Origin: Acidobacteriota bacterium
GTDB lineage: Bacteria > Acidobacteriota > Thermoanaerobaculia > Multivoradales > JAGPDF01
Assembly: GCA_039933785.1 (NCBI GenBank)
Contig: JBDTNL010000007.1
Span: forward strand, 5,466-69,465
Direction: 5' to 3'
DNA length: 64,000 nt
In this document: positions 42,339-47,416 of the stretch, piece by piece
How the letters are laid out: every line of letters begins with the position of its first letter
Numbering within the stretch: position 1 is the first letter of the stretch
The notes under the pieces: model-generated
The model's input: only the letters and a program-made list of their open reading frames with translations
Databases searched by the model: none
Told to the model about the DNA's origin: nothing
Made by a program: the position numbers and the translations under genes

Positions 42339-42542
42339 CTGCGGCGCCTCTATTCAGAGTCGTCAATATAGCACCAAAGCGGCAAAAAATGGCTGCTTTT
42401 GTGGGTGACCAAGGGAAGTTCGCCTTGTTCGTGGAGGAAGCGATTGCTAGAATCCGCGTCCTGCCGCCGGTCGTTCTCGACCGCGGCGCAGTGCCCGGAT
42501 CACCCCCATCGAGATCACCCCCGGGAAACAGAGGGAGTTTCA

Positions 42543-44506
42543 TGCTCAAGATCATTCGCACGAATCTTCAATATCTCCGCTGGATCCTCTGGCTGGTGGT
42601 AGCGATTTTCATCCTGTACATCTTCGCCGATTTCGGCGGCGGTCTCTCGGGCATGGGGCGCGGATCGACCTACGCCGCCAAGGTGGGCGATCAAACTGTT
42701 TCGATGGCCGAGTTCAAGGCCGCGAACCAACAGCTCGAACAGCAGTACCGGCAGATTTACGGCGAGCAGTTCAACGCCGACACCGCCAAGCAGATGCGGC
42801 TGCCGGTGCAGGCGCTCGACCGAGTGATCGCGCAGAAGATATTGCTCGCCGAAGCCCGGAAGATGGGCCTCGCGACCAGCGATCAGGAACTACGGCATTC
42901 GATTCTTTCGATGGCGGCCTTCAAGGACGAGTCCGGCGCCTTCATCGGCGACCAGGCCTACCACGATCTCCTGGTTTCCAATGAGCGCAATCCGGAGATC
43001 TTCGAGCGCGAGATGCGCGATCAATTGACCATCGAGAAGCTCACCCAGGCCTTGCAGGAAACGGTGCGGATTGCCGATGTCGACGTCGAGAAGGCGTATC
43101 GCGAGCAAAGCGACAAGGCCAAGATCCGCTTCATGGTCCTCGCGGCGACGCGTTTCCAGCCCGTCGGCGCGCCGGCGACCGCCGAGCAGGCCAAGGCGTA
43201 CTTCGAGGCGCACAAGGAGTCGTTCCGGCTGCCCGAGCAGCGCATCGTCGACTACGTCCTGGTCGATGGCCAGAAGACCATGGCGACGACAGTGGTGAGC
43301 GACGCCGACGCCAAGGCCTACTACGACCAGAACACCGCGGAGTTCGCCCAGGAAGAGCAGGTTCGGGCGCGCCACATTCTCCTCCAGGTGAACGACAAGC
43401 GCACCGAGGCCCAGGCGATGAGCCAGGCGCAGGCACTCCTCGCTCGCTTGAAGAAGGGCGAGGACTTCGGCAAGTTGGCGGCTGAAGCGTCGGAAGACCC
43501 CGGCAGCAAGACCCGCGGCGGCGACCTCGGGTTCTTCGGTCGCGGCCGGATGATCAAGGAGTTCGAAGAGGCCGCGTTCGCCGCCCAGCCGGGCGAGGTC
43601 GTGGGTCCGGTCAAGACCTCGTTCGGAGTTCACCTCATCCGCGTCGAAGAAAAGAAGCCAGGTGGCCAGCTGACCTTCGAGCAGGCGAAGCCGCAGATCC
43701 TCAACCGCCTGCGCTCCGAGCGGGCGCAGGCGGCGACCGAAGCCAAGGCCAAGGAGCTGGCGGCCAAGCTGGGCAAGGAGAGCGATCTCGACGCTGCGAA
43801 GCTCCGCAGCGCGATCGCTGCCGACAGCGCGGTCGCCACGGTCGAGACCACGGCGCCCTTCGGCCGTAGCGAACCCGTGCCGGGAATCGGCGCCGGATCG
43901 CCGTTCGCGAGCGCGGCGTTTGCGCTCGAGAAGGGCAAGCTCTCGGAACCCGTCCGCATTCCGCGCGGCTTCGCCCTGCTGACCGTGCGCGAGGCGCGCC
44001 CGAGCCGGTTGCCCGATTTCGCCGAGGCGGAGACCAAGGTGCGCGCGGCGATCGAAAATGAGCGCCGCAACGATCTCGCCATGCAGCAAGCGCGAGATGC
44101 GCGCGCCCAGCTTGGCGATGGCAAGACGCTCGATGAGGTTGGCAAGGGACTTGGTATCGACGTTCGCGACAGTCCCGAGTTCGGCCCGACCGGCTTCATC
44201 GCCGGTCTGGGCCTCAACCCGCAGGTGAACGAGGCCGTCTTCGCCCTCAAGCAGGGCGAGTTCGGTGGCCCGGTGGCAACGCCGCAAGGCCCGGTGATCT
44301 TCCAGGTCGCCGAGCGCAAGGGCTTCGACCCCACGGACTTCGCCAAGCAGAAGGAACAGCTGAGCACGAATTTGCAGCGCGAGGCGGCCAACAAGCTGCT
44401 CGCGTCGCTGGTGGAGCAACGCCGGCAGGAACTCAAGGTTTCCTACGACCGCCAGCTCCTGCAACAATTCGGAGTGCTCGACGACGAGGGCAAGGCGAAG
44501 GGCTAG
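42543..44506 (+). CDS. Periplasmic chaperone PpiD-like (N-terminal TM, SurA-N-like domain, parvulin PPIase domain)
   Basis: GAGGGAG RBS; N-terminal TM ILWLVVAIFILYIF; parvulin segment ARHILL...GGDLGFFGRGRM...GVHLIRVEE. Confidence 0.8.
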
Positions 44507-44606
44507 CCCTCCCGGTGCGGATCCCGCGCCGTCGAACACCTCGTTCGACGGCGTCACCTTCATCGAGCTGCGCTTCAAACTCCCGGCCGAGGACTAGAAT
44601 CGGCGC

Positions 44607-44915
44607 ATGGCCAATTCCCGCAAGCTCCAGTTGCGCTGCCCGGACTGCGGCAGCGACTTGACGATCGACGCCGAGACCGGCGAGATCCTCTTCCACAAGA
44701 AGCCGAAGCAGGCCCCCGCCGAGGGCAAGACCTTCGACGAGCTCTTCGCCGGCATGAAAGCCGAGCGCTCCCGCGCCGACGAAATCTTCGAACGCGAAAA
44801 AGCCGCCTTCAAGGATCGCGACCGCCTGCTGGACGAAAAGTTCAAGGAAGCGGTGAAGCGGGCCGAAGAAGATCCGGACACCGGCCGGCCGATTCGGCCA
44901 TTCGATCTTGACTGA
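44607..44915 (+). CDS. Small Lys/Glu-rich zinc-ribbon protein (CPDCGS), hypothetical
   Basis: 102 aa, very strong GC3 bias; overlaps antisense the tail of the disrupted vapC frame. Confidence 0.6.
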   Translation: MANSRKLQLRCPDCGSDLTIDAETGEILFHKKPKQAPAEGKTFDELFAGMKAERSRADEIFEREKAAFKDRDRLLDEKFKEAVKRAEEDPDTGRPIRPFDLD

Positions 44916-44926
44916 AGGTTCGCCGA

Positions 44927-45190
44927 GTGATCAGGTCCCGGAGCGATGACCCGTGCGGCAGGCCGCCCGACGAGCGCCTGGCAGAACGCGAGTGCCGTTG
45001 GCAGCGCCGAAGGCTCGCGGAAGACTCGGCCATTGGTCACGATGCGAACAAACCCGCCGAGCGTCAAGACGGATAGGGCGAAGGGCTCGCGACCGGTCGC
45101 CAGGTTCGAGAGCCACTGCGCGTAGCGGGAATGCTCTTGCGCATCCCTGCGATGCGCATGGACGAGCACATTGACGTCCGGGGCGAGCAT
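44927..45190 (-). pseudogene. vapC: vapC (PIN-domain toxin) remnant: first about 88 codons intact, C-terminal half of PIN domain missing
   Basis: MLAPDVNVLVHAHRRDAQEHSRYAQWLSNLATGREPFALSVLTLGGFVRIVTNGRVFREPS matches the VapC N-terminus (Asp5, Glu35); frame then reads through into the Ser/Arg-rich antisense of the 44607-44915 gene with no further PIN acidic residues. Confidence 0.6.
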
Positions 45191-45192
45191 CC

Positions 45193-45348
45193 TCAGCGCT
45201 CTCCGGGCTCTCTTTTGTAGGTCGCCTCGTCCTCCGCGACGAGCAATTCCGAGGAGCGATTCAGATCGACGCCGGCGTGGGTTCCTCCCCGCCCCGCGGT
45301 GATCAAGCGAAAGGGTGGCGGCTTTGCGGCCGAGGGCTCAGCGACCAA
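45193..45348 (-). pseudogene. Possible vapB antitoxin remnant (no ATG; TTG only), stop overlaps vapC RBS
   Basis: Frame ...LITAGRGGTHAGVDLNRSSELLVAEDEATYKREPGER* ends TGAGGATG; same frame continues directly from htrA stop; no canonical start. Confidence 0.25.
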
Positions 45349-45369
45349 CCGTTGGAGAGCCCGCTTGAC

Positions 45370-46662
45370 TCAAAGCGGAAAGCTCAAGTTGTACGCATAC
45401 CTTCCCCGCTGAACGACGAGCAGCAGTCCACCCCGGTCGATGCCCCGCAGCACTTCCCGGCCGAGCGCCTCGACGGTGGTGATCTCCTGCCCATTCGCTC
45501 CGAGCACCACGTCGCCTCTGCGAAGCCCGCGCTCGGCCGCGGCGCTGCCGGTTACGACCGAGGTGATGAGCAGACCGCCGCGCTGACTCTCCACCCGCAG
45601 GCCGATGCCGCGCTCGAGAAGTCCGAGGCCAAGGTCTTGGGGTGGGCTCTCGGGACGCAGCTGCACGCTCAGCGTCTGATCGCCGCGACGCAATTGCAGA
45701 GGAATGGCGCTGCCGACAGCGACCGAATACACCGCGGTGGTTACGTCCTCGCGCGCCGCGATCGGCAGACCGTTGACGGAAACGATTGCATCGCCGTCCT
45801 TGAGGCCGGCGCGGAAGCCGGGCGACCCCGGATAGACCTTGGTGACCAGAGCGCCGCGTTGGAGACTCATCTCGTTCTCGCGGGCGGTCTCGGCGTCTAG
45901 GGTTTGTAGCCGCAGTCCCGTCCACACCGGGCGCAATTCGCCGAAGCGCAGCAAGTCGCCGACAACGCGTTGCGCGCGATCGGAGGGGATGGCGAAGCCG
46001 ATGCCGTTGGCGCCCGAGATGATCGCGGTGTTGATGCCGATCACGTCACCGGCCAAATTGACCAGCGGGCCGCCGGAATTGCCGGGGTTGATCGAGGCGT
46101 CGGTCTGCAGGAAATCGGTGAAGACCCGCTGGCCGTTCTCGGACGGCACCGCGCGCCCGCGCGCCGACAGCACGCCGGTGGTGACGGTATGCGAGAGACC
46201 GAACGGGTTGCCGATCGCGACCACGGTCTCGCCGATCATGAGATCCGCGCTCTTGCCGAGGGGCCGTGCCGGCAGGCCTTTGCCTTCGACCTTGAGCACG
46301 GCGAGGTCGGCGTCGCGGTCCGAACCCAAGACGTCGGCCTCGAGCTCGCGGCCGTTGAGCGTCGTGACCACGATGCGCGAGGCGCCCTCGATCACGTGTG
46401 CGTTGGTGAGCACGATGCCGGTGGCGTCGATGATCAAGCCGGAGCCGAGCGATTGGGTGCGGCGGCCCCGGCTCTGTCCGAGCAGGCTGCCGAAGAAGGG
46501 GTCGACGTCGCGCACCATCGACTCGGCGGAGACGTTGACCACGGCGGGTGAGATCTTGTCCACGACTTCGACGACCGGAGTCCGGCGCAGCGAAAGCTGT
46601 GCACCGGCGACCGCGGGAAGAGCGAACAGGAGAAGGACGGGGAGTGAGATGGGGCGCTTCAT
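45370..46662 (-). CDS. HtrA/DegP family periplasmic serine protease with two PDZ domains
   Basis: Signal MKRPISLPVLLLFALPAVAGA; catalytic triad context TNAHVI, DLAVLK, GNSGGPL; two PDZ-like regions. 166-codon upstream extension in ORF track is non-coding. Confidence 0.85.
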   Translation of the reverse strand: MKRPISLPVLLLFALPAVAGAQLSLRRTPVVEVVDKISPAVVNVSAESMVRDVDPFFGSLLGQSRGRRTQSLGSGLIIDATGIVLTNAHVIEGASRIVVTTLNGRELEADVLGSDRDADLAVLKVEGKGLPARPLGKSADLMIGETVVAIGNPFGLSHTVTTGVLSARGRAVPSENGQRVFTDFLQTDASINPGNSGGPLVNLAGDVIGINTAIISGANGIGFAIPSDRAQRVVGDLLRFGELRPVWTGLRLQTLDAETARENEMSLQRGALVTKVYPGSPGFRAGLKDGDAIVSVNGLPIAAREDVTTAVYSVAVGSAIPLQLRRGDQTLSVQLRPESPPQDLGLGLLERGIGLRVESQRGGLLITSVVTGSAAAERGLRRGDVVLGANGQEITTVEALGREVLRGIDRGGLLLVVQRGRYAYNLSFPL

Positions 46663-46843
46663 GAAGCGCTTGGGATGCAAGGACGATACCGACTCGCGAC
46701 ACGCATCCGCAATTGCTACACTGATTGTAGTGTCCCAACCGTTACCTCGCAACAGTGGTTCGGTCGCGGTGCTCGCCCCGCCTGAGGCGGCGCTGCCCGC
46801 GGCGGCGTCCGACTTCCCTCGTCGGATCTTGACCGTCGCCTGG

Positions 46844-47416
46844 ATGTCGATCCTGCTCGGTTTCGCCATCGAGGCGTTGCTCCTCGCCGTGGCGACGGGG
46901 ATGAGCGGCGGCCTAGTACAACCGGCCCCATTCGTTGCCGACCTGGTGCAGAAAGTCTCTTGGTCATTCTTGGTTTGCCTCGGACTCGGCATCGGCACAT
47001 CGGTCGTCAAGGCGCGTCCGGCGGCCATGGGCGCGCTTGGCTTCGTCGCCGCGCCGGTCGCCTTCTCGATCGCCAAGGCACTGCACAAGGGCATGGGCGC
47101 GGCCCTCGGCGTGGCGGGTGTAGTGGCCGGCCCCTCGACGTTTCTGATCGCCCTGCTCAAGGCCGTCGAGTACGGTGTGTTTGGCGTCGTGCTCGGACGG
47201 GTCAGCCAGAAACCGGGTGCGGGTCTCGGCCTCTACACGGTGATTGGTCTCGCAATCGGTGTGGTGTTCGGCGGGGCGATCACCGCGCTCATCGCACAGG
47301 CCGGAGCGACAGGCTCGGGTCTCGCCACCAAGGCGATCAACGAGCTGATCTTTCCGCTTGGCTGCTCGCTGGTCCTGTACGTGGCCGACGCGCTCGGTCG
47401 AAACACCGCTTCATAA
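46844..47416 (+). CDS. Small hydrophobic membrane protein (about 190 aa, 4-5 TM), hypothetical
   Basis: Strong GC3 bias from ATG 46844; start uncertain. Confidence 0.5.
   Translation: MSILLGFAIEALLLAVATGMSGGLVQPAPFVADLVQKVSWSFLVCLGLGIGTSVVKARPAAMGALGFVAAPVAFSIAKALHKGMGAALGVAGVVAGPSTFLIALLKAVEYGVFGVVLGRVSQKPGAGLGLYTVIGLAIGVVFGGAITALIAQAGATGSGLATKAINELIFPLGCSLVLYVADALGRNTAS

Follow-up and report, generated by a model that had tools for sequence, protein, structure and literature searches.

A probable vapBC pseudogene remnant between a conserved 102-aa protein gene and htrA in an Acidobacteriota genome

Layout of the locus and its resident genes

The window, that is, the whole 64-kb stretch of DNA analysed here, has a GC content of 66.5% and carries a gene for a conserved 102-aa protein (the CPDC protein) that is convergent with an htrA gene, with an interval of 454 nt (44916-45369) between the two. 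A minus-strand ORF of 198 aa starts with an ATG at 45190 and runs to 44594; its product begins with MLAPDVNVLV and has D5, E35 and VTNGRVF (residues 51-57) as landmarks. The features of the locus are listed below.

42542-44506, plus strand: gene for a ppiD/SurA-like peptidyl-prolyl isomerase, the upstream context gene
44607-44915, plus strand: gene for the conserved 102-aa CPDC protein (product begins MANSRKLQLRCPDCGS), a resident flanking gene
44594-44914, minus strand: continuation of the 198-aa ORF, codons 93-198 and stop, a non-coding shadow frame antisense to the CPDC gene
44915-45190, minus strand: vapC′, codons 1-92 of a VapC/PIN toxin gene (TIGR00028/VapC43-like), with ATG start
45188-45195, minus strand: vapB′-vapC′ junction TGAGGATG, comprising the antitoxin stop, 2 nt and the toxin ATG
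45193-45369, minus strand: vapB′, 58 codons (45369-45196) and stop (45195-45193), corresponding to positions 30-82 of an RHH-type VapB
45370-46869, minus strand: htrA/degP-type serine protease gene (Trypsin_2 and two PDZ domains), a resident flanking gene

Over this 1.2 kb, four contigs that had been assembled independently, from four sequencing runs, show 100% identity, indicating that the toxin-antitoxin (TA) remnant is not an artefact of metagenome assembly. The annotation pipeline of the source assemblies called no gene in the 454-nt interval. The overall GC content of the remnant equals that of the window and the host, and its GC3 is 0.76 compared with 0.82-0.85 in host genes. No tRNA, tmRNA or Rfam family reached threshold across the whole 64-kb window; the spacer showed no Rfam match, terminator or unusual RNA structure, and no promoter-like site was found in 44400-45600.

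The family of the CPDC protein has more than 200 members, nearly all of them 101-105 aa long; it occurs only in Acidobacteriota (Thermoanaerobaculia, Holophagales and Pyrinomonadaceae MAGs) and has no Pfam or NCBIfam model. An earlier sequence-only reading of this DNA had regarded the 102-aa frame at 44607-44915 as a well-coded gene, and it is indeed real and conserved. Its invariant residues include C11, P12, C14, H30 and a C-terminal R-P-F-D-x-D. A zinc ribbon has two zinc knuckles that supply four Cys/His ligands on a three-stranded sheet. The label of zinc ribbon given to the protein in that reading is unproven, since the only zinc-ligand candidates invariant in 26 homologues are C11, C14 and H30 (one CxxC and one His) and the Pfam zinc-ribbon matches of the protein, at E = 0.003-0.2, are all below the cut-off. 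In an AlphaFold2 model (pLDDT 78), a helix of 45 residues comes after a three-stranded sheet, and a fold search with this model against the PDB gave no significant match. As a well-conserved and unannotated family of Acidobacteriota without a known fold relative, the CPDC protein is the more useful by-product of this analysis. Among the relatives examined (L005-L092), its gene is often convergent with htrA.

Both flanking genes, which are of housekeeping type, are complete. The CPDC C-terminus RPFDLD is invariant in 26 aligned members, indicating that this gene has kept its full length up to the native stop, and HtrA ends in the conserved ...YAYNLSFPL*, htrA being intact to its native C-terminus. 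In relatives where the two genes are adjacent, they are convergent and separated by only 0, 4, 7, 22, 33, 34 or 47 nt, without a TA module. This conserved spacer of 0-47 nt indicates that the TA piece is an addition, not a TA locus into which the CPDC gene was inserted. The history proposed in the sequence-only reading, in which a vapBC locus was interrupted by the small gene, is therefore reversed: CPDC and htrA are the conserved residents, and no vapC C-terminal sequence lies beyond the CPDC gene or elsewhere in the window, as tblastn of the 64 kb with seven family members gave only noise for the missing VapC C-terminus and VapB N-terminus. Nor did we find any VapB or VapC sequence adjoining the CPDC gene in 80 species-representative genomes, or an intact orthologue at the CPDC-htrA junction in these 80 genomes, in 80 metagenome loci or in close relatives reached by exact-protein look-up. 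As to the suggested check on the spread of the CPDC gene, it is widespread in Acidobacteriota and is not specific to this locus. In L005, L013, L045 and L074, relatives with a longer spacer, the inserts consist of ABC-transporter genes or others, without any TA module. It appears that, in these compact acidobacterial genomes, the junctions between convergent genes act as slots of variable content.

Truncated toxin and antitoxin genes

The 198-aa ORF had been proposed to start with a VapC/PIN N-terminus resembling the mycobacterial VapC family, and profile and structure comparisons bear this out. Residues 1-92 matched positions 2-92 of 143 in TIGR00028 (Mtu_PIN_fam, 'TA system VapC family ribonuclease toxin', NCBIfam) with E = 4.2e-20; the score of 72.4 bits falls slightly below the curated cut-off of 73.6 because the PIN domain is truncated. 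The Pfam PIN model gave no match to the ORF. Residues 1-88 aligned colinearly with residues 1-88 of M. tuberculosis VapC43 (PDB 7VWO; E = 3.6e-18), which is the sole relative with a solved structure and to which a full-length family member aligns from end to end. A search of a large protein database confirmed the PIN similarity with 246 matches; these are essentially all PIN proteins or VapCs of 139-160 aa, cover only the first 44-56% of the ORF and include intact family members with identities of up to 59-66% among the best. We then used a family HMM of 143 positions, derived from 70 complete VapC members of 141-159 aa from metagenome contigs. ORF residues 1-92 matched its positions 1-92 with 124 bits (E = 2e-40), and the tail of the ORF (residues 89-198) scored -2 bits.

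The end of the similarity is sharp. In a column-wise comparison, 47-67% of positions agree with the family as far as H88; beyond it agreement drops to 19% in a stretch in which the family itself is 74% conserved, and the Asp that is 99% conserved in the family motif 'VADAQHAA' is a Gly in the ORF. The stop codon of the CPDC gene marks the end of PIN homology (44915-44927); the earlier observation that this homology is lost after about 88 residues, where the frame continues as the antisense of the 102-aa gene, thus holds, given the HMM match to residues 1-92 and the negative score of the tail. With 92 homologous codons, as compared with 141-159 aa in the 70 complete members, the complete domain is absent, the missing part being the C-terminal ~50 residues (profile positions 93-143). 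Tests for a complete domain therefore place the sequence in the family as a truncated member only. Of the four acidic active-site residues of PIN domains, VapC′ has the first two, D5 and E35, and comparison with the family columns shows that the third and fourth are missing (the Asp of 'VADAQHAA' and the later Asp of T.D.DF). As these last two catalytic residues are absent, the toxin should be inactive, and both RNase activity and growth inhibition by VapC′ are predicted from the sequence to be absent. What remains of the N-terminus is well preserved, scoring 126 bits; the corresponding part of 114 intact members scores 133 ± 6.7, which places VapC′ at the 21st percentile.

The remaining 106 codons of the ORF are a non-coding shadow ORF antisense to the CPDC gene. 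At the three codon positions their GC content is 0.42/0.64/0.84, a mirror image of the 0.65/0.40/0.84 in the CPDC gene, the third positions of the two frames coinciding. Among 42 relatives without PIN, this antisense frame has no stop at all in 22 and a single one in 17. The 198-aa ORF would thus exist only because the antisense frame of a GC-rich gene chances to be free of stops. ORF length alone is uninformative in a genome of 66.5% GC, as illustrated by two further shadow ORFs in the window, of 562 aa antisense to ppiD (42890-44578, minus strand) and of 525 aa antisense to htrA (45839-47416, plus strand). The sequence-only reading had kept open a genuine fusion, that is, a real 198-aa protein in which the N-terminal half of a PIN domain is joined to a novel Ser/Arg-rich C-terminal domain overlapping the CPDC gene in antisense. 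The uninterrupted ORF with its ATG start speaks for such a protein, but we give it virtually no credence, and the results above refute it: the homologues of ~140-160 aa cover no more than the first 44-56%, the tail is conserved in none of them and no protein with the 198-aa architecture occurs among the 246 database matches. The mirrored codon-position GC of the tail and the frame being open in relatives that have no PIN sequence also count against it, as do the half domain lacking two of four catalytic residues and the fact that the source assemblies called no gene here. For annotation, the ORF should not be called a PIN protein, and the interval should be recorded as a vapB′-vapC′ pseudogene remnant.

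Upstream of the toxin start lies the vapB′ frame, VKRALQRLVAEPSAAKPPPFRLITAGRGGTHAGVDLNRSSELLVAEDEATYKREPGER, which at 58 aa is shorter than the intact partners (79-97 aa); of the earlier description of an 'antitoxin-sized' frame, the antitoxin homology stands and the size does not. The frame had no Pfam or NCBIfam match. An exhaustive HMMER search retrieved 18 proteins, mostly of 80-100 aa, which aligned via their C-terminal halves and carry an N-terminal RHH_1/VapB_antitoxin domain at residues 1-40; the best match, P0241, had E = 1e-11 (query 2-56 vs 31-85). We also made an antitoxin HMM of 84 positions from 31 antitoxins encoded directly upstream of VapC homologues in metagenome loci. Residues 1-53 of vapB′ matched its positions 30-82 with 47 bits (E = 1e-16), and adding the HtrA C-terminus to the frame did not extend the match. 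By this alignment, vapB′ runs from the end of RHH helix 2 through the linker to the toxin-binding C-terminus. It shares the linker and C-terminal region, PFRLxT...G.DLDR...L.AEDE..Y, of RHH-type VapB antitoxins of 80-100 aa but, unlike these, is without the beta-strand and helix 1 (positions 1-29), a start codon and a promoter.

The remaining statements on this frame were verified: TGAGGATG forms its end, neither ATG nor GTG occurs in it, and the htrA stop is in frame with it. Its 58 codons include TTG codons, no convincing ribosome-binding site was seen, and the frame directly abuts the htrA stop codon at its 5′ side. The antitoxin stop 2 nt before the toxin ATG is an arrangement typical of translational coupling. 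The RHH domain binds DNA and also mediates antitoxin dimerisation. Without the RHH part, a start codon and a promoter, no autoregulation would be possible and VapB′ is probably not made.

Diverged vapB in a related lineage

In L010 and L011, contigs of a closer relative, the CPDC protein is 98% identical to that of the window (88-89% for the gene in nucleotides), and the similarity stops one base past the CPDC stop. The end of a minus-strand vapB (...PVFRLVTAGRGGARPGIDLVRSSDSLVAEDQAFYNNKPRKH*) follows, with its stop 25 nt beyond the CPDC stop and in the same orientation as the window copy. No vapC was found at this site in either relative, and both contigs end before the vapB start.

L011:491-723, minus strand: apparently orphan vapB, vapC absent
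L010:949-1151, minus strand: apparently orphan vapB, vapC absent

In the synteny check that had been advised for an intact vapBC in relatives, no intact module was found, and a diverged vapB without vapC occupies the site in L010 and L011. The 25-nt gap in these two may keep the first ~6 codons of vapC (13/22 nt match). The L011 vapB is 58% identical to vapB′ and reaches further into the RHH domain; vapB′, the L011 vapB and P0241 have a TAGRGG motif in common and are mutual nearest relatives. A word-indexed protein search with the L011 VapB fragment returned no candidates.

Divergence between the window and L011 is uneven along the locus. The 3′ end of ppiD has about one mismatch in 62 nt, and the ppiD-CPDC intergenic DNA is still alignable for the most part, with one indel of 16 nt. 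For the CPDC gene (44607-44912 vs L011:182-487), dS is 0.35 and omega 0.02, whereas for vapB (45196-45369 vs L011:519-722) dS is 1.14, dN 0.33, omega 0.29 and third-position identity 45%. This uneven synonymous divergence suggests mosaic recombination or allele replacement at the junction. Since dS of vapB far exceeds that of the CPDC gene and omega is 0.29, most of the vapB divergence arose under protein-level constraint and predates the split of the CPDC genes. These results point to distinct vapB alleles at a variable slot, by replacement or repeated acquisition, and not to simple shared descent of one insertion; the two lineages may not share one ancestral insertion. L010 and L011 themselves, with a dS of 0.03 in the CPDC gene, differ upstream (L010:470-560 vs L011:1-90), where L010 has a cytochrome c gene and L011 has ppiD. 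The breakpoint lies just past the ppiD stop, and either a real rearrangement or a chimeric short contig is possible.

Origin and fate of the remnant

We propose, with a probability of roughly 0.85, that 44916-45369 is the pseudogene remnant of a type II TA operon, consisting of an RHH-type VapB and a VapC PIN RNase of the TIGR00028/VapC43 subfamily, and that a complete vapBC was there earlier. The surviving part is the operon middle, VapB positions about 30-84 and VapC positions 1-92. The idea of a decaying TA module with a truncated toxin put forward in the sequence-only reading is thereby supported, and the antitoxin proves to be truncated as well (RHH positions 1-29 missing). The word 'degenerate' used there fits the truncations and not the retained parts, as the retained 450 nt contain no frameshift and no internal stop and their family scores are within the range of intact members. 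With the truncations as the only lesions and family scores near normal, the truncations are probably recent. The vapB′-vapC′ remnant is almost certainly non-functional.

Set against known systems, the locus is an ordinary dead gene remnant from the VapBC43-like type II TA family (TIGR00028) rather than a novel fusion protein. It resembles VapBC43 and TIGR00028 members in the colinear residues 1-88, D5, E35, the VTN motif and an RHH-type antitoxin abutting the toxin start, but it is without profile positions 93-143 and is not an intact gene, and its host is an acidobacterium, not an actinobacterium as for VapBC43. Like other chromosomal TA pseudogenes and orphan antitoxins, it has a lost toxin active site, vapB-only counterparts (L010/L011) and a position in a variable 'islet' between conserved genes; unlike those, both genes here are cut from the outside inwards, flush with the stop codons of their neighbours, and the internal junction is untouched. 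The locus is a clean, datable example of a chromosomal TA module eroded from its outer ends with the neighbouring genes intact, although its significance beyond correct annotation is small.

In the proposed course of events, a complete vapBC would once have occupied the CPDC-htrA junction as a TA 'islet' at a recombination-tolerant convergent site. A deletion that began inside vapC and reached the CPDC stop would have removed the C-terminal third of the toxin with the third and fourth acidic active-site residues. Once the toxin was disabled, a second deletion could have removed the antitoxin promoter, the start codon and the RHH DNA-binding domain up to the htrA stop. A toxin can be lost harmlessly as long as its antitoxin is made, and its loss is known to release the antitoxin from selection; were the antitoxin to go first, an active toxin would be set free. 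What is left is most likely a passive passenger on transcripts that read through the 3′ end of htrA, and should behave as no more than htrA 3′ untranslated sequence. Against this model, no intact vapBC module was found at the site in any relative. Further, the distance from either truncation point to the flanking stop codon is only about 0-12 nt, which is tidy for two independent deletions and is a point against a two-deletion model. Deletions entering the flanking genes would be selected against, and the spacers are kept at 0-47 nt, which may explain end points near the stop codons.

The intact 450 nt and the near-normal VapC′ score may leave room for selection on the remnant. It is very improbable, in our estimate, that a function has been retained, with the toxin-binding peptide of VapB′, translated from the htrA transcript by a TTG start or stop read-through, acting as an orphan antitoxin or 'anti-addiction' factor against incoming VapC toxins of related type, or with the VapC′ fragment acting as a decoy. 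Besides the intact frames and near-normal family scores, such a role would agree with the retention of vapB after vapC loss in L011 and with the omega of 0.29 in the vapB comparison, but that omega mostly reflects divergence older than the truncation. The lack of an ATG or GTG, a convincing ribosome-binding site or a promoter-like site argues against expression, the missing RHH domain is also the dimerisation domain, and the truncated form is seen nowhere else among the 246 protein matches and 80 metagenome loci. We place equally little weight on the speculation that VapBC43-like modules have repeatedly landed at this junction within the Thermoanaerobaculia lineage, and that toxin-less leftovers such as the orphan vapB of L010/L011 and, here, the toxin-binding VapB′ peptide are kept to neutralise incoming related VapCs, with vapB′ expressed from the htrA transcript.

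The flush ends could also be explained if an internal fragment of ~450 nt from a foreign vapBC had been pasted between the two stop codons in a single event, for example as filler DNA during double-strand-break repair or by illegitimate recombination, in which case a complete module was never here; the fragment would be equally non-functional. We consider this unlikely, though less so than a retained function. A single capture is the simpler account of the flush ends, since one event would yield both boundaries and the absence of internal damage, and it accords with the lack of an intact copy at this site in any relative. Against it stand L010 and L011, where an antitoxin of the same TAGRGG subfamily occupies this site and has the orientation of the window copy, with another part of the operon preserved; independent random captures would hardly produce such a pattern. 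A 10-nt direct repeat (9/10) lies on both junctions, CTTGACTGAA at 44907-44916 and CTTGACTCAA at 45364-45373, each copy including the flanking stop codon, and could be taken as a trace of such a capture. However, the repeat may be due to chance, which would give about 20 of this quality in 1.2 kb, and recombination between the copies recreates no viable ancestral junction, so the repeat is not taken as a target-site duplication or crossover site; nor is there significant similarity beyond the junctions. Microhomology-mediated deletion is likewise not proposed, because the family HMMs score nothing positive beyond the junctions. In BLAST, the alignments run slightly past the junctions, with VapC 'GATGKLVAD' facing antisense 'GRIGRPVSG' and VapB 'GLSFSAL' facing HtrA 'NLSFPL*'.
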